Shown here one piece after another: positions 1,476 through 30,499 of a stretch of 32,000 nt of DNA. Position numbers and translations under genes: made by a program. This stretch comes from Kiritimatiella glycovorans (GTDB lineage Bacteria; Verrucomicrobiota; Kiritimatiellia; Kiritimatiellales; Kiritimatiellaceae). Below the pieces are notes generated by a model. The model saw nothing but the letters and a program-made list of their open reading frames with translations. It made no database searches and was not told where the DNA came from. Every line of letters starts with the position of its first letter. Positions within the stretch are counted from its first letter, which is position 1. The stretch is from assembly GCF_001017655.1 (NCBI RefSeq), contig NZ_CP010904.1, positions 600,001 through 632,000 of the forward strand. The letters run 5' to 3'.

Positions 1476-1610
1476 GGGTCGGGATAGGGGTGGAGGGTTG
1501 TTGAGTTGCTGGGTTGCCGGGAATGCGGCGATGAATGGTTATTCGCAGGTTTTTATGGAAGGTCGTCCGGGGGAACGGTGGAATGCGGGAGATCGGAGGC
1601 ACATGATACT

Positions 1611-1754
1611 CAGCGATTCTCATTATGGCTTCACCCTTTTCGGTCGGGGTGGCACCCGACCCTCCCAGTGCCCGAAAATGCGTCGGATATCGACTCGGGA
1701 GGGACGGCTGCCACGCCGTCCGCGGTCGGAATGCGGCCATAATGAGAACTGCTG
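1611..1754 (+). mobile_element. 144-bp MITE-like non-autonomous element, copy A
   Basis: Recurs at 27225-27368 with 2 mismatches (1668 G/A, 1679 T/G). Termini CAGCGATTCTCATTATGGC ... GCCATAATGAGAACTGCTG are inverted repeats (17/19). Flanked by a perfect 9-bp direct repeat CATGATACT at 1602-1610 and 1755-1763. Confidence 0.85.
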
Positions 1755-1772
1755 CATGATACTTGGCCCTGC

Positions 1773-2131: not shown

Positions 2132-3352
2132 ATGGCCTACGAAGTATTAGCACGGAAATGGCGCCCTCAGCGTTTCGAGGACGTGGTCGGGCAGGAACAC
2201 GTCACGCGGACCCTCCGGAACGCGATCGAATCGGAACGCGTCGCCCACGCGTACCTGTTCGTCGGACCCCGCGGCATCGGAAAGACCTCGTCCGCGAGGA
2301 TCTTCGCCAAGGCCCTGAACTGTACGGACCGCAGAGACGGCGAGCCGTGTAACGAGTGCGAGTCCTGCACGGAGATCACCGCCGACCGGAGTCTCGACGT
2401 GATCGAGATCGACGGTGCATCGAATAACGGGGTCGATGACGTCCGCGAACTTCGGGATAACGCCCGCTACGCCCCGAACCGGGGGCCGTTCAAGATCTAC
2501 GTCATCGATGAAGTGCACATGCTCAGCACGGGGGCGTTCAATGCGCTCCTGAAGACGCTCGAGGAACCGCCTCCTCACGTGAAGTTCTTCTTCGCCACCA
2601 CCGAGCCCCGGAAAGTACCCAATACCATCCTCTCGCGCTGTCAGCGCTTCGATCTGCGCCGCATCTCGGTCGCGGACCTCGGGACCCAGCTGCGGAAAAT
2701 CGCCGCCGCCGAAGAGATCGAGATCACCGAAGAGGCGCTGCTCGCGATCGCCCGCGGTGCGGAAGGGGGTATGCGGGACGCCGAGTCGGCGCTCGACCAG
2801 CTCGTCTCTTTCCGCGGGAAGCATATTAACGAGGAAGATGTCCTCGCCGTCTTCGGACTGGTCTCGCAGGGCGCGCTCTACGGCCTGCTCCAGGCGGTGC
2901 TCGACGGCGACCGCGGAACGATCCTCGACCGGATCGCCGAATTCGATCGTTCGGGCCGCGATCTGCCGCGGCTGGTGGGCGAACTGCTCGACGGAGTGCG
3001 GCACCTGCTGGTGCTGAACTGTGCCGGAGAGGAGCAGGTCGGCGAAGCCCTGACCGATGCGCAGGTCGAGGCGCTCAAAGCATTGGCCGGGAAGGTCGAC
3101 GAGGAACGCCTGCTCAGAATGACCGATATCCTCGTCGAAACCGATCTCCGGATGAAGTCCTCGCTCTCACCGCGCACCCTGCTGGAGACCGGACTGGTCC
3201 GCTGCTCGCGTGCCGCCACGGTGGTCTCCATGGATGAGCTCATCCGCCGGCTCTCCGAGCTGGAGGGCGGGGATTCCGGATCTCCGGATCCGTCGCCGGA
3301 TCCGTCGCCCGCCCCGGAGGCGAAAAAAAAAAGAGCGCCGCGGATGAGCTGA
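2132..3352 (+). CDS. dnaX: DNA polymerase III subunit gamma/tau, zero-frame product (clamp-loader domains I-III plus Pro-rich linker)
   Basis: Walker A GPRGIGKTS, Zn module CNECESC, IDEVHML, SRCQRF sensor motif. The frame ends at TGA 3350-3352, 6 codons after an A10 run (3323-3332). Confidence 0.9.
   Translation: MAYEVLARKWRPQRFEDVVGQEHVTRTLRNAIESERVAHAYLFVGPRGIGKTSSARIFAKALNCTDRRDGEPCNECESCTEITADRSLDVIEIDGASNNGVDDVRELRDNARYAPNRGPFKIYVIDEVHMLSTGAFNALLKTLEEPPPHVKFFFATTEPRKVPNTILSRCQRFDLRRISVADLGTQLRKIAAAEEIEITEEALLAIARGAEGGMRDAESALDQLVSFRGKHINEEDVLAVFGLVSQGALYGLLQAVLDGDRGTILDRIAEFDRSGRDLPRLVGELLDGVRHLLVLNCAGEEQVGEALTDAQVEALKALAGKVDEERLLRMTDILVETDLRMKSSLSPRTLLETGLVRCSRAATVVSMDELIRRLSELEGGDSGSPDPSPDPSPAPEAKKKRAPRMS
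3316..3332 (+). promoter_or_regulatory. candidate recoding site (slippery A10 run with upstream SD-like GGAGG)
   Basis: GGAGG at 3316-3320, then CG, then A10 at 3323-3332. The zero frame reads AAA AAA AAA AGA, so A AAA AAA (3325-3331) allows tandem -1 slippage into AAG AGC GCC. The run is also long enough for transcriptional slippage. Confidence 0.5.
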
Positions 3353-24784: not shown

Positions 24785-24932
24785 ATCCGTCCTCCCGGCG
24801 CGGTCAAACCTTTACCCGGCGTTCGTTCCCCCATTCAAAACCCACCATACGTGATCCTCTTATTCCATTGCAAACCCCGCCGGAGTCGTGTTTTCTAGGA
24901 GTTTCCGGAGCCCTGCGCCAGAACGGATTATT

Positions 24933-27194
24933 ATGAAGGTTCTTATTGCAGAAGACGACCCTGTTTCGAGGACCGTGTTGCGCCGCGTCCTCGAGCGGCT
25001 GGGTCACGAGGTTGAGATCACCTGCGACGGCGCGGAGGCGCTCGAGCGGCTGACCGCACCCGATGCGGCGCGGCTGGCGATTATGGACTGGATGATGCCG
25101 GAACTGGACGGGCTCGACGTCTGCCGCCGCGTCAAGAATCTCGGCAGCATGAACCCCGTCTACGTGATCGTGCTTACCGCCCGCCGCGAAAAGGAGGACC
25201 TGCTCCAGGCCTTCGAGGCGGGCGCCGACGACTTTATCTCGAAACCTTTCGACCAGGACGAGCTGGCGGCGCGGCTCCAGGTGGGGCAGCGCATCATCGA
25301 ACAGCAGTCGCTGCTGAGTTCGCTGATCGATTCGATCCCCGATCTGATCTATTTCTCCGACGGGTCGGGACGATGCCTCGGCTGCAACCGGGCCTTCGCG
25401 CGCTACGTCGGGCGGAATCGTACGGAGATCGTGGGTTCCCGGCCGCCGGACTTTTTCGACCGGGCACGCGCCGAGGAGTACCGGGAACTGCGCGAACGAA
25501 TCGAGCGCGATGAAGCCCCCAGCCGGTACTCCAAGTGGGTGACGTATCCCGACGGCGAATCGCGTCTGATGGATTGTGTGACGACCCCGTTTCACGGGCC
25601 GCACGAGGAGATGATCGGCTGGATCGAAGTGAGCCGCGACATCACGGAACGCCACCGCATCGACCGCGAACACCGCCGCCTCGCGGCCGTGGTCGAGCAG
25701 GCCGCCGAGGCGATCATGATCACGGACCTCGACGGGAATATTCAGTACGTGAATCCCGCCTTCCAGCAGCTCACGGGATATGCGACGGAGGACGCCGTGG
25801 GCTGCACGCCGAATATCCTCAAGAGCGGGACTCACGAAGACGCGTATTACCGCAAGATCTGGACCGCGCTCGAAAAGGGCGAGATCTGGAACGGACGGTT
25901 CACGAACCGCGGCAAGAACGGCCATTTTTTCGAGGCGGAGTCGGTGATCTTCCCCATCCGGAACCGGGAAGGGGAGATCACCAATTACGCCAGCATCATG
26001 AAGGACGTCACCCAGGAACTCCACCTCGAGGCCCAGCTCCGTCAGGCCCAGAAGATGAACGCGGTGGGTCAGCTCGCCGGCGGCGTGGCGCACGACTTCA
26101 ACAACCTGCTGATGGTCATTCGCAACAGCGCGCAGTTCGCCCTCGAAGGCAAGGAGTCCCCGGAGGAAGTCGAAGAAGATCTGACGGCGGTGATCGACGC
26201 CGCCAAGCAGGCGGCCACCCTCACCCGGCAGCTCCTGGCCTTCTCGCGCAAACAGGTGCTCTCCCCGCGCCAGCTCGACCTCAACGAAGTCGTGCTCGGA
26301 CTCGAAAACATGCTCCAGCGCGTCATTCCCGAGAATATCCGCATCCGCTACAACGTCGCCGAGGACCCCTGCCTCTGCCGTGTCGACCACGGCCAGATCG
26401 AACAGGTGATCGTGAACATGGCGGTCAATGCCCGCGACGCCATGCCCGGCGGCGGGACGCTGATCATCGAGACCCGGCACGCCCAGCTCTCGCGCCAGGA
26501 CGCGGAGGAATTCATCGAGTGGGAGGAGGAATGCACGGGGCGTTACGTTCTGCTGATGATCAGCGACAGCGGAGTGGGCATGGACCGCGACACCATGCAC
26601 CACATCTTCGAGCCGTTCTTCACCACGAAAGGGGTGGGCAAAGGCACCGGCCTCGGACTGTCCACCGCCTACGGGATTATCAAGCAGCACGGCGGGCATA
26701 TTTCAGTCTACAGCGAACCCGGCAGCGGGACGACGTTCAAGGTCTACCTGCCCGAGGTGCGCGAGAAGACGGAGACCGCCGGGCGGCAGGAACAGTCCGG
26801 AGATCTTCCCGGCGGCGGGGAGACGATTCTTATTGCGGAGGACGAGCCCGCCGTGCTCCATCTGGCCACCCGTATGCTCCGTCTGCTCGGCTATGAAGTA
26901 CTCGAGGCCCGCAGCGGGGAAGAGGCGCTCGAGGTGCTCGACCGCTACAAGGGCCACGTCGACCTCCTCTTCGCCGACGTCGTCATGCCGGGCATGGACG
27001 GCACCGAACTCGCGGGTAAGGTCAGCGAACGTTACCCCGATATCAGAGTCCTCTTCGCCTCGGGCTATTCCGAATTTCACGTCAAGGATCAGGGCATGAT
27101 TCACGACGAAAACGATCTCATCCAGAAACCCTTCGTCCTGGCCGACCTCGCCCACAAAATCCGCAAAGTCCTCGGCGCGCCGGATTCCGGGTAA
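24933..27194 (+). CDS. hybrid sensor histidine kinase (REC-PAS-PAS-HisKA-HATPase-REC)
   Basis: N-terminal receiver (LIAEDDP...IMDWMMPELDG), two PAS modules, H-box VAHDFNNLL, G-boxes GTGLGLS...GSGTTFKVYLP, C-terminal receiver (ILIAEDEP...FADVVMPGMDG). ATG 24933 gives the MKVLIAEDD start. Confidence 0.9.
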   Translation: MKVLIAEDDPVSRTVLRRVLERLGHEVEITCDGAEALERLTAPDAARLAIMDWMMPELDGLDVCRRVKNLGSMNPVYVIVLTARREKEDLLQAFEAGADDFISKPFDQDELAARLQVGQRIIEQQSLLSSLIDSIPDLIYFSDGSGRCLGCNRAFARYVGRNRTEIVGSRPPDFFDRARAEEYRELRERIERDEAPSRYSKWVTYPDGESRLMDCVTTPFHGPHEEMIGWIEVSRDITERHRIDREHRRLAAVVEQAAEAIMITDLDGNIQYVNPAFQQLTGYATEDAVGCTPNILKSGTHEDAYYRKIWTALEKGEIWNGRFTNRGKNGHFFEAESVIFPIRNREGEITNYASIMKDVTQELHLEAQLRQAQKMNAVGQLAGGVAHDFNNLLMVIRNSAQFALEGKESPEEVEEDLTAVIDAAKQAATLTRQLLAFSRKQVLSPRQLDLNEVVLGLENMLQRVIPENIRIRYNVAEDPCLCRVDHGQIEQVIVNMAVNARDAMPGGGTLIIETRHAQLSRQDAEEFIEWEEECTGRYVLLMISDSGVGMDRDTMHHIFEPFFTTKGVGKGTGLGLSTAYGIIKQHGGHISVYSEPGSGTTFKVYLPEVREKTETAGRQEQSGDLPGGGETILIAEDEPAVLHLATRMLRLLGYEVLEARSGEEALEVLDRYKGHVDLLFADVVMPGMDGTELAGKVSERYPDIRVLFASGYSEFHVKDQGMIHDENDLIQKPFVLADLAHKIRKVLGAPDSG

Positions 27195-27224
27195 CCCGCC
27201 CTCGCCACAAGAAAAAACGAATTC

Positions 27225-27368
27225 CAGCGATTCTCATTATGGCTTCACCCTTTTCGGTCGGGGTGGCACCCGACCCTCCCAATGCCCGAAAAGGCGTCGG
27301 ATATCGACTCGGGAGGGACGGCTGCCACGCCGTCCGCGGTCGGAATGCGGCCATAATGAGAACTGCTG
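27225..27368 (+). mobile_element. 144-bp MITE-like non-autonomous element, copy B
   Basis: 142/144 identical to 1611-1754 in the same orientation. Flanked by a perfect 9-bp direct repeat AACGAATTC at 27216-27224 and 27369-27377. Confidence 0.85.
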
Positions 27369-27439
27369 AACGAATTCGACAAGGGGTGGTTTTCACATTA
27401 TATTTCTATAAGTTACGGTTGCGATCCCCGGAGGTTGAA

Positions 27440-30400
27440 ATGAAGCACAAGTTTGCAGACGGGTTTTGTATAGCGGCGTGTGCGTTGCTCGTTTCCATGA
27501 CGGCGGCAGCCGCGCCGTGCGGTATGAGCGTGGAGGGCAGGACGGGTGCGGTTTGTGTCGATACGCCGCAGCCGCGGTTTTCATGGCGGCTGGACGAGGA
27601 AGGCTACGGGGTGCGCCAGACGGCTTATCGCATTCAAGTGGAGGCGGACGACGACGGGAGGACGGTCTGGGATTCGGGTCGCGTCGAGAGCGGTGAGCAG
27701 CTCTGGATCGAGTACGCGGGCCAGCCTCTCAAACCCTCTTCGGCCTATCGCTGGCGGGTGCGGACGTGGACCGGCGACGGGAAGTCCGGCTGGAGCGGCT
27801 GGGCATCGTTCGACACGGCCCTGCTCTCTGACGGAGGCTGGGAAGCGTCCTGGATTCGGGCTCCCTACGATCGATGGGCCGGGCGTTCCGGATTCCGCCC
27901 GTATGACCGCCTGCTCGATACACCGGAGATCAAGGCTCATGCCTGGGTTCCCGATGCCCCCTGGATCGAGACCTGGGTCGAAAAGGCCACACTCCATTCG
28001 CACCGCATCCCCAAAGAGAAACAGGCCGATTTCCAGCGCGACCGGCTCTATGAAATCCAGCCTGCGCCGATGTTCCGCAGGGAATTCCGCATTCACAAAA
28101 GAATACGCCGCGCTGTGCTCCACTACTGCGGGCTGGGGTTGGCCGAGTTCTACGTGAACGGCTCGAAAATCGGGAACACTACGTTTGACCCGGCGTTTAC
28201 CGATTACGACGAGCGTGCCCTCTACCTGAGTTACGACGTCACCGACGAGCTCCTTCCGGGCGTGAACGCGATCGGCGCGATCCTCGGCGAGGGCTGGTAC
28301 GGCCAGTCGCTGGCCTACGCCACACTCAAAGAGACCCCGCGCTACGGCGATCCGGGCCTGATCGCGCAGCTCGAGCTGATCTACGAGGACGGCACGCGCG
28401 AGCGGGTGGTCACGGATGATTCGTGGACTTGTACGCTCGAAGGGCCGGTGGTCAAGAACGGCATCTGGTGCGGCGAAGTGCATGACGCGCGGCGCGAAAT
28501 GGCCGGCTGGAGCGAGCCGGGTTTCGAGGGCGGCGAGGCCTGGACGGCCGCGAAGACGGTTGAACCGCTCTCGCCGCGCCTGGAGGCACAGAACGTCGAG
28601 CCGATCCGTGTGGTTGAAACCACGGAAACGAAATCGATCATGCACCCGAAACCCGACGTGTGGGTCGTCGATCTCGGCCGCATCCTGACCGGGGTAGTGC
28701 GTCTTAGGGTGGAGAACCAGCCCGCAGGAACGCCGATCCTGCTGACCTACGGCCAGTCGCTCGACCGCGACGGCACGGTCTACGGAACGGGACATATGTC
28801 CGTTACGGCGAACAACGCGGACCTGTATGTCTGCCGCGGGGATGCGGAGGAGACTTGGACGCCGCGCTTCACCTTCAACGCCTTCCGCTATGTGCAGATC
28901 GAGGGACTCATCGGCGAACCGCACCTGGAAACTATCAGCGGACTATTCACCTCGACGGACATGCCGGAGGCGGGGCGGTTCCAGTGTTCCGAGCCGTTGC
29001 TCAACGAGTTGCATCATGCGCTGGTGCGTACCGTGCAGGGCAATACGCGCCACATGTACTCCGACACCCCCACGCGCGAACGGACCGGCTGGATGACCTG
29101 GCCGAATGCGCGGGCGATTATGGACAATTTCAACTCCTACTCCTACTGGGATAAGTATATCGCCGACTGGCGCACCAGCGCCGGTCGCGCGCCGATCGGC
29201 GGCCATGCGAGCGCCTGGGGCAGCGACCGGGACCAGATCCGTTTTGATTCGGGTCGAAAGGGCGAGATCATGGAGAACGTCGGCCCCGGCATGGCCCCCG
29301 GCCGCCGATCCTCCAATATCCCCGAACAGCGCATCAGCAATGCCATGTACCCGTGGGAGACTTATGTGCGCTACGGCGACCGTAACCTGATCCGCGACCA
29401 TTACGAGATCGCGAAGGGGACGGTCGATCTGCTCGCTGAAACCCGTATCGAGGGGCTGGTTTTCTCCGCGGTCGGCGACTGGCACGATGCGGTGAAGGAG
29501 GATCTCAACATCGGTCTGCGCCGTGAGCGAGGCCTGGAGCGCGACGACACGTTCGGCCGGATCGGCGGCGGGTACCCGGTTCACACCCCCGGACGCATCT
29601 GCGGTACGGTCCACCTCTACCTAGCCGCCCGCGCCCTGAGTGATACGGCGGAGGAGCTGGGTAAAGCGGAGGATGCGGAAAAATACGACGCACTCGCGGA
29701 AGATCTCAAGGCGGCCTTCAACCGGGCGTACCTTGACCCGCAGACCGGCCGCTACTCGTATACTACGCCCGAAGGCAACACCTACGAGTCCCAGACCATG
29801 TACGGCTACGCGCTTTACCATGACCTGGTCCCTAAGGAAAAACGCGAACAGACCATGCGGAGGTTCCTGGAACATATCGCGGAATACGACGGTCACTTCA
29901 CCAGCGGCCAGCTCGGTACCGATCGCGTGCTGAAGGCGCTCACCGTCGGAGGCCACGAGGAGACCGCGATGAAAATGCTGACCGCCGAAGGCTTTCCGGG
30001 TTTTCGCTACATGCTCTCGTTCGGATCGGAGACGACCTGGGAGACATGGGGCGAGGCGGTTTTGAACGCGACCCCTGAAGGTTCAGAGCATATCATCCGC
30101 GCCAATCGTCCGCAGGAACACTGCCAGTGGACCGCCGTCGACACGTGGTTCTACGAATACGTGCTCGGCATCAGGCCGGATCCGGAGCAACCCGGCTACG
30201 GTCATTTCACGCTCAAACCCTACATGGTCCGCCAGCTCGAATCCGCCCGGGGCTCGTATGAGTCCCCGCGCGGACGGATCGTCAGCGAGTGGTCCTGCAG
30301 CAAAGGGGTGTTTGAGTGGACCGTCGAGGTACCCGCCAATGCTACGGCCACCCTCTACGCGCCCTGCGGCCGGGACGGCGTGAAGGTCGCCGAGGGCGAA

Positions 30401-30499
30401 GCGGGAATTCTCGATCGCGAAAAACCCGCGAACGGGCGGCAGAGACTGGAGGTCGGCTCCGGGCGCTACCGCATCAGCGCAAGTCTGCCCGGGGCATGA
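27440..30499 (+). CDS. alpha-L-rhamnosidase, GH78 family
   Basis: Signal peptide MKHKFADGFCIAACALLVSMTAAAAP. GH78 N-terminal pattern PRFSWRL...QTAYRIQV...VWDSGRVESGEQLWIEYAGQPLKPSSAYRWRVRTW. ATG 27440 is preceded by GGAGG. The track start at 27239 lies inside the MITE. Confidence 0.85.
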   Translation: MKHKFADGFCIAACALLVSMTAAAAPCGMSVEGRTGAVCVDTPQPRFSWRLDEEGYGVRQTAYRIQVEADDDGRTVWDSGRVESGEQLWIEYAGQPLKPSSAYRWRVRTWTGDGKSGWSGWASFDTALLSDGGWEASWIRAPYDRWAGRSGFRPYDRLLDTPEIKAHAWVPDAPWIETWVEKATLHSHRIPKEKQADFQRDRLYEIQPAPMFRREFRIHKRIRRAVLHYCGLGLAEFYVNGSKIGNTTFDPAFTDYDERALYLSYDVTDELLPGVNAIGAILGEGWYGQSLAYATLKETPRYGDPGLIAQLELIYEDGTRERVVTDDSWTCTLEGPVVKNGIWCGEVHDARREMAGWSEPGFEGGEAWTAAKTVEPLSPRLEAQNVEPIRVVETTETKSIMHPKPDVWVVDLGRILTGVVRLRVENQPAGTPILLTYGQSLDRDGTVYGTGHMSVTANNADLYVCRGDAEETWTPRFTFNAFRYVQIEGLIGEPHLETISGLFTSTDMPEAGRFQCSEPLLNELHHALVRTVQGNTRHMYSDTPTRERTGWMTWPNARAIMDNFNSYSYWDKYIADWRTSAGRAPIGGHASAWGSDRDQIRFDSGRKGEIMENVGPGMAPGRRSSNIPEQRISNAMYPWETYVRYGDRNLIRDHYEIAKGTVDLLAETRIEGLVFSAVGDWHDAVKEDLNIGLRRERGLERDDTFGRIGGGYPVHTPGRICGTVHLYLAARALSDTAEELGKAEDAEKYDALAEDLKAAFNRAYLDPQTGRYSYTTPEGNTYESQTMYGYALYHDLVPKEKREQTMRRFLEHIAEYDGHFTSGQLGTDRVLKALTVGGHEETAMKMLTAEGFPGFRYMLSFGSETTWETWGEAVLNATPEGSEHIIRANRPQEHCQWTAVDTWFYEYVLGIRPDPEQPGYGHFTLKPYMVRQLESARGSYESPRGRIVSEWSCSKGVFEWTVEVPANATATLYAPCGRDGVKVAEGEAGILDREKPANGRQRLEVGSGRYRISASLPGA

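Follow-up and report, generated by a model that had tools for sequence, protein, structure and literature searches.

The window analysed here is a 32,000-nucleotide stretch of the genome of Kiritimatiella glycovorans (NCBI RefSeq assembly GCF_001017655.1, contig NZ_CP010904.1, positions 600,001 to 632,000 of the forward strand); all positions below are counted from its first letter. It carries a non-coding element of 144 bp, far below 1 kb, in two copies, both read on the plus strand: copy A at 1611-1754 and copy B at 27225-27368. Copy A occupies the intergenic region between the NAD synthase gene (nadE, 472-1431) and the gene for the signal recognition particle (SRP) RNA (ffs), with dnaX next. 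Upstream of copy B, a gene for a hybrid histidine kinase / response regulator (24888-27194) has its stop codon 30 bp before the element, and downstream of the copy lies the gene for a GH78 alpha-L-rhamnosidase (27440-30499). A first reading of the sequence alone, referred to below as the original prediction, took the element for a non-autonomous, recently moved MITE (a miniature transposable element with inverted repeats) and not for a structured RNA. This is supported by full-length insertion sequences (IS) with the same ends, by MITEs elsewhere that are flanked by 9-bp duplications, and by the lack of any Rfam match. The element is, very probably, a non-autonomous MITE with terminal inverted repeats (TIRs) and a 9-bp target-site duplication, which transposed recently and whose ends serve a Tn5-like transposase encoded elsewhere.

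The two copies are 98.6% identical and differ at two bases, 1668 (G/A) and 1679 (T/G) in the numbering of copy A; the predicted repeat proved exact in coordinates and sequence. A repeat search returned the pair 1611-1759 / 27225-27373 as the sole long repeat of the window. The predicted 19-bp TIRs are present and match at 17 of 19 positions. In copy A the left TIR (1611-1629, plus strand) reads CAGCGATTCTCATTATGGC and the right TIR (1736-1754, minus strand) reads CAGCAGTTCTCATTATGGC as its reverse complement. Both ends of both copies match the consensus CAGCRRTTCTCAT(T/C)(A/T)TG. The degenerate terminus CAGCNNTTCTCATTATGGC has exactly four matches in the window, namely the four element ends, against 0.04 expected from shuffled sequence. 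Between the 19-nt ends lie about 106 bp that are non-coding and nearly palindromic, and the G+C content of the element is 62% in a genome of 64% G+C.

Each copy is bracketed by its own direct repeat. The target site region of copy A reads GGAGGCACATGATACTTGGCCCTGC, and the perfect 9-mer CATGATACT stands at 1602-1610 and again at 1755-1763. Copy B is flanked by a different perfect 9-mer, AACGAATTC, at 27216-27224 and 27369-27377. Both duplications, predicted to differ between the copies, were read directly from the sequence. The chance probability of each is about 4e-6, and chance cannot account for two perfect 9-mers that differ from each other and directly adjoin the same element ends. The divergence of 1.4% between the copies, the intact ends and the perfect duplications together indicate recent movement.

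Terminus CAGCNNTTCTCATTATGGC also ends IS of 1.44-1.77 kb that encode a DDE transposase of ~430 amino acids (aa). One of them, locus L018 in a metagenome-assembled genome (MAG) of Thermohalobaculum, is a 1453-bp element with the same ends and an open reading frame (ORF) of 434 aa. The L018 ORF has at least 7,923 homologues, mostly of ~430 aa, and many of these are found on contigs of 1.4-1.6 kb, as is typical when a repeated IS assembles by itself. Where a homologue is named, the name is 'ISNCY family transposase' (PGAP). 'ISNCY' ('not classified yet') serves as a placeholder and does not denote a defined family.

The same termini were found on IS copies that had been retrieved through their protein and so without use of the DNA pattern. 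The copy on plasmid pNPUN02 of Nostoc punctiforme (L121, 1641 bp, annotated 'ISNCY family transposase') has the ends CAGCAATTCTCAT(C/T)ATGAG and the duplication CCAACTCAG, of 9 bp or possibly 10. The copy in Gloeothece verrucosa (L122, 1766 bp) has ends CAGCAATTCTCATTTTG.. and no duplication. One long-read assembly (P0044) holds eight copies of 1437 bp (L123-L130) with an identical transposase protein and the ends CAGCAATTCTCATTTTGGC / CAGCAGTTCTCATTATGGC; six of the eight have a perfect 9-bp duplication, one a 10-bp duplication and one none. A copy of 1444 bp in ENA assembly ERZ25068762 (L131) has the ends CAGCAGTTCTCATTTTGGC / CAGCAGTTCTAATTTTGGG and a 9-bp duplication. Base for base, the window MITE and the 1437-bp IS have the same right end, and 7 of the 9 full-length copies L123-L131 show the 9-bp duplication. 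The full-length IS whose ends match those of the MITE are L018, L121, L123-L131 and L212. The 10-bp duplication, in L124 (AAGCGATGAC), departs from the 9-bp rule. More distant relatives keep the first eight terminus bases only: a Saccharobesus relative (35% identity) ends in CAGCAATT.. (CAGCAATTATTGGT) and has the perfect 9-bp duplication TAAATAAAG, and a Legionella relative (33% identity) ends in CAGCGGTTCCCGGC.

Short elements with the same ends are widespread. An exact scan for the terminus over one genome per species yielded at least 120 loci from about ten phyla, with Kiritimatiellia, Lentisphaerota, Verrucomicrobiota, Alpha- and Gammaproteobacteria, Chloroflexota, Cyanobacteriota, Desulfobacterota, Omnitrophota, Planctomycetota and others among the sources. 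Beyond the 19th base these loci are unrelated to the window element and mostly unrelated to one another. Since only the ends are kept across loci, what is conserved is a site recognised by a protein and neither an RNA nor a gene. Most of the matches are short elements, and 53 of these are complete with both flanks (48-533 bp, median 134 bp). A 9-bp flanking repeat was found in 30 of the 53, perfect in 17 and with one mismatch in 13, and repeats of 8, 10 or 11 bp were found in none of them. Control 9-mers taken one step further out gave a low-mismatch match in 1 of 53. MITEs elsewhere with the same ends and 9-bp duplications thus strengthen the MITE reading first proposed for the window. All-against-all BLASTP of the ORFs beside the terminus in the at least 120 loci showed no recurrent family, because nearly all of the loci hold MITEs. 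By tblastn with the L018 ORF over the terminus loci, transposase was found only in L018 (full length) and, as fragments, in L023 and L028.

The two fragments are truncated N-terminal pieces beside the terminus: residues 4-82 at about 3492-3795 of L023, and residues 32-145 at about 7061-7531 of L028. The orientation of the L028 fragment is opposite to that expected from L018. Both loci may be deletion or rearrangement derivatives en route to MITEs. Nine of the MITEs (L016, L033, L061, L014, L041, L081, L101, L112 and L118) have a subterminal module in common, a short GC hairpin followed by ACTAC(A/G)AACGG. They come from MAGs with different labels (Kiritimatiellae, Victivallales, 'Proteobacteria' and unclassified), and the module points either to one MITE lineage that spread horizontally or to a second site beside the terminus that is conserved. 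A minimal element of 73 bp, consisting only of two TIRs and one hairpin, is present in the Victivallales MAG CAZKRK01 (L062, 9-81; L103, 4693-4765), with a perfect 9-bp duplication in L103. Its start stands at the extreme end of several contigs, and it was also found in L006, L031, L036, L076, L077, L094, L095 and L116. The 73-bp Victivallales element is probably present in high copy number and breaks the assembly.

The partner transposase was compared with family models in 12 diverse members. Pfam DDE_Tnp_1 matches 11 of them, around or below the gathering score, and the ISAs1-type N-terminal domain PF13808 (DDE_Tnp_1_assoc) matches six weakly. The NCBIfam IS4 models NF033591 / NF033592 match nine weakly and far below the cut-off (24.5 bits against 152). 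The ISAs1 model NF033564 matches none of the 12 and scores a genuine ISAs1 transposase at 402 bits; a profile-to-sequence comparison with ISAs1 by hhalign was not significant. Among the residues that never vary are the acidic D127 and E336 and the signature RWKIENE..F..LK, which is of the DDE_Tnp_1 type and C-terminal. A sequence search of the PDB gave no relative, and PHROGs gave only a weak match, to a family of unknown function.

From 25 homologues, AlphaFold gave a model with a mean confidence (pLDDT) of 82.9 and a predicted template modelling score (pTM) of 0.84. The best solved matches by Foldseek are all Tn5 transposase (1muh, 4dm0, 3ecp and 1mus; E 7e-11 to 1e-9), with template modelling (TM) scores of 0.48-0.59 over about 450 columns and a wide gap before the next structures. 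The predicted fold of the partner transposase is closest to that of Tn5 transposase. Between the first and second catalytic acidic residues sits an invariant Cys/His cluster (C139, C142, H156 and C190 in L018 numbering, residues 139-190; motifs HCxNC and KQDCE). The cluster, which is not known from Tn5, may be an insertion that binds zinc.

The original prediction had listed ISAs1, IS4 and IS1 as compatible families without committing to any. The IS4/ISAs1 part is borne out by the Tn5/IS4-like predicted fold and by the ISAs1-type N-terminal domain in some members, and falls short at the level of the curated models. Membership of the curated IS4 family was rejected, as the transposase scores far below the NF033591/NF033592 cut-off even though the modelled fold is Tn5-like. 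ISAs1 membership was rejected on the unmatched NF033564 and the non-significant hhalign comparison. No result points to IS1: the partner has a single ORF of ~430 aa and a predicted Tn5-like fold, and no IS1 model is among the matches listed.

Tn5 recognises 19-bp ends, moves by cut-and-paste via a hairpin intermediate and leaves 9-bp duplications. By analogy with Tn5, the following mechanism is proposed for the partner family. The 19-nt ends would be the only functional parts of the MITE, serving as binding and cleavage sites (CAGCRRTTCTCATTATGGC end) of a Tn5-like DDE transposase. This protein, of ~430 aa, would be supplied in trans by an autonomous IS of ~1.44 kb with the same termini. The transposase would excise the element at its CAG...CTG ends and join it to target DNA whose two strands are cut 9 bp apart; the 9-bp direct repeats would arise when the gaps are repaired. 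Both copies landed in intergenic DNA, copy A at about -46 to -55 from the SRP RNA start, where it replaced the DNA upstream of the candidate ffs promoter. We infer mobilisation in trans and a working transposase in this genome, now or recently; the cut-and-paste chemistry would be like that of Tn5.

Several observations weigh against this account. A 24-mer specific to the 144-bp body had no match in the metagenome collection, BLASTN of the body against plasmid and phage collections gave chance-level matches and no relatives, and the only two known copies of this particular body both lie within 32 kb. Beyond the 19-nt terminus the MITE interior has no similarity to the ends of the full-length IS copies compared, which gives no support for an origin of the MITE by internal deletion of a parent IS. 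Three full-length copies (L018, L122 and L129) are without a duplication, possibly lost by recombination between copies. The nearest relatives available share 62-65% DnaX identity and are too distant for an intergenic empty-site comparison. The prediction that the window holds no transposase stands for the partner family, the one family looked for, with no remnant by tblastn (best E 0.65). The K. glycovorans genome paper reports 75 transposase genes, with families unnamed (PMC5148204).

Among the alternatives, the one that fares best keeps the MITE and adds a function: the element would have been co-opted and retained because it acts on neighbouring transcription, for example as an upstream promoter element, an insulator or a terminator or RNA-stabilising hairpin placed between the preceding gene and the promoter that follows, the promoter of the essential SRP RNA included. 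The SRP RNA gene named in the original prediction is real; 1810-2092 on the plus strand matches Rfam RF01854, the large bacterial type, over its full length (119.8 bits, E 2e-18). A possible ffs promoter, found by eye at 1773-1801 on the plus strand, consists of TTGCAT (1773-1778), a 17-nt spacer and TACCCT (1796-1801). Its position fits a start near 1810, each hexamer agrees with the consensus at 3 of 6 positions, and an analogous TTGCCA-17-TAGCGT stands upstream of the SRP RNA in the Kiritimatiellae MAG locus L081. The predicted closeness of copy A to this site holds, with 9 nt between the end of the right duplication (1763) and TTGCAT; the candidate -35 box itself is weak and was missed by a scan of 1400-2200 for the sigma-70-like consensus, which found no promoter. 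Next to copy B a sigma-70-like promoter of the rhamnosidase gene is predicted at 27376-27404 on the plus strand (TCGACA-17-TATATT, 10/12; 1 site against 0.2 expected). Its -35 hexamer overlaps the right duplication by 2 nt, and copy B ends 7 nt upstream of this promoter. An outward-facing promoter inside the TIR was also considered, on the strength of CATAAT, which resembles a -10 hexamer, and rejected: it has no -35 partner, and the scan placed no promoter there.

In favour of co-option, both copies have the same orientation, lie behind the end of a co-directionally transcribed upstream gene and stop 7-18 nt short of a candidate -35 hexamer (TCGACA at 27376 for copy B, TTGCAT at 1773 for copy A), and the outward-facing end GCCATAATGAGAA is A+T-rich in a genome of 64% G+C. 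These are two cases only, however, in which a shared orientation has a chance expectation of 50%, and purifying selection predicts that any surviving insertion will be intergenic. The ffs promoter lacks the support of the consensus scan, and neither copy has a terminator-like site in its region. Moreover, none of 80 related ffs-dnaX loci (423 kb of metagenome sequence, DnaX identity at most 62%) has a TIR-like site or such an element, which marks the insertion as lineage-specific and places it outside conserved ffs control. The link of copy A to the SRP promoter is positional, and a regulatory effect on ffs is possible; retention for such an effect is considered unlikely.

A second alternative is that the repeat is a structured RNA gene or cis-regulatory RNA, conserved in two copies, with the hairpin as its functional product and no mobile DNA involved. 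Both copies are intergenic and oriented as the flanking genes, and copy A is predicted to fold, whichever strand is taken, into a very stable whole-length hairpin (z about -8; -80 and -83 kcal/mol for the two strands). Such a hairpin is automatic in a near-palindromic MITE; it follows from the design and is therefore no evidence for RNA function. In the Rfam check proposed with the original prediction, no family matches the element at the gathering score or, on 1550-1810, even at E <= 1. The element boundaries are the exact termini of an IS family that encodes a transposase, each copy has its own 9-bp duplication, and elements with the same 19-nt ends but unrelated interiors in about ten phyla form the pattern of a transposase recognition site. 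The RNA alternative is thus largely refuted, and we give it hardly any credence. A third alternative is that no small element transposes as such, and that two full-length IS insertions each decayed in situ by deletion, leaving the copies as separate remnants, or that the repeat is a segmental duplication: deletion derivatives of the IS family do exist (L023 and L028, with the terminus beside a truncated transposase fragment), but two independent decays would not yield the same 144-bp body with two differences, a segmental duplication would not stop exactly at the TIRs and have its own 9-bp duplication on each occasion, and the identical internal junctions already contradict the idea, which is left with next to no probability.

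Each arm of the MITE also has a 7-bp hairpin of its own, at 1623-1642 and 1704-1723 (same positions in copy B), with the common loop GTGGCA. The stems are GGTCGGG/CCCGACC in the left arm and GGACGGC/GCCGTCC in the right arm read inward. Four positions distinguish one arm from the other, and these differences are compensatory inside each local hairpin and mismatched in the long hairpin between the arms. Subterminal hairpins as a general trait of MITEs with this terminus were rejected, since 104 arms gave a median z of -0.7, with 22% below -2.

The MITE resembles elements known from other bacteria. Nezha of Anabaena/Nostoc is a MITE of 130-170 bp whose TIRs are those of ISNpu3 of Nostoc punctiforme, and a published example has a 10-bp repeat (PMC3184786, PMC6042816). 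Chunjie of Geobacter uraniireducens has a length of 178-235 bp, 21-bp TIRs and 9-bp direct repeats (PMC3184786, PMC6042816). Like both, the window element is small, non-coding and intergenic, with TIRs copied from an IS, direct repeats and a very stable predicted hairpin. Its 9-bp repeat has the length given for Chunjie. Nezha has a 10-bp repeat and a model partner IS in N. punctiforme, and the N. punctiforme member of the IS group described here (L121) likewise has a repeat of 9 or 10 bp. The comparison with Nezha and with Chunjie was made by published description, and a terminus CAGCAATTCTCAT common to them and the window element is a lead only. The window element is G+C-rich (62%), unlike the described elements, which are A+T-rich, and its body is unrelated to any retrieved sequence. 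A search of the available library for the terminus sequence returned no paper giving it, and a search for ISNCY-linked MITEs or for ISDol1 returned no useful account.

The closest likeness is to the ISNCY-named IS group (WP_234711115.1, N. punctiforme pNPUN02; WP_013335080.1, Gloeothece verrucosa Cy782202), whose termini CAGCAATTCTCAT... are identical to those of the MITE and which makes the same 9-bp duplication; the MITE differs in having no transposase and nothing in common with the IS interior. With Tn5/IS50 of the IS4 family the partner transposase shares its predicted fold (1muh and 4dm0, E 7e-11 to 5e-10) and RWKIENE..F..LK, whereas identity is only 13-14%, the end sequences are different and the partner transposase has a Cys-rich insertion. 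Members of the ISAs1 family have termini starting with CAG and make duplications of 8-10 bp. The partner transposase is like those of ISAs1 in having a PF13808-like N-terminal region followed by a DDE_Tnp_1 domain, but NF033564 is unmatched.

Further observations concern the genes around the copies. An ORF of 1086 aa (27239-30499) begins with an ATG that lies within copy B, in its left TIR (CATT-ATG-GC), and runs through the whole MITE and in frame into the GH78 gene. Very probably the rhamnosidase in truth starts with the ATG at 27440, since GGAGG stands before this codon and a sequence like a signal peptide comes after it; the spurious start inside copy B could mislead a gene caller. The DnaX protein encoded at 2132-3352, 100% identical to that of K. 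glycovorans, has 406 aa and stops after domain III, and nearly all relatives at 62-67% identity have 525-580 aa; either a gamma-like form that is short by nature or a tau that has been truncated could be present here. The large SRP RNA model RF01854, which contains the Alu domain, is matched by K. glycovorans (1810-2092) and by a metagenomic relative (L135, 2615-2901), and the SRP RNA of the Kiritimatiellae MAG locus L081 (2276-2375) matches only the small model RF00169. The same ffs-dnaX locus, L081, was rejected as an orthologous empty site because its upstream gene is different.

The design of the MITE is well known in bacteria, and the 144-bp element is a further example with its own body. 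With it the type strain of the phylum Kiritimatiellota gains a mobile element that had not been annotated, one copy of which is inserted about 50 bp upstream of the gene for the essential SRP RNA. As a probe the 19-nt terminus is simple and highly specific, with 4 matches against 0.04 expected in the window, and it finds MITEs and partner IS in MAGs of many phyla, where the terminus repeats, often placed at contig ends, probably break assemblies. The partner transposase has at least 7,923 homologues, passes no Pfam or NCBIfam model and lacks a solved structure; it merits a proper family definition. Its termini of 13-19 nt are almost invariant across transposases that share 43-100% identity, and this near-invariance across phyla is a property of the family and not of the window locus. 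Tentatively, and with rather less confidence than is held for the element itself, the lineages with unrelated interiors may constitute a pan-bacterial MITE superfamily, arising independently in at least ten phyla and all served by one highly conserved Tn5-like transposase clade. If that is true and the group is undescribed, few known IS/MITE partnerships would be distributed as widely, and it would be a handy one for the study of MITE birth.

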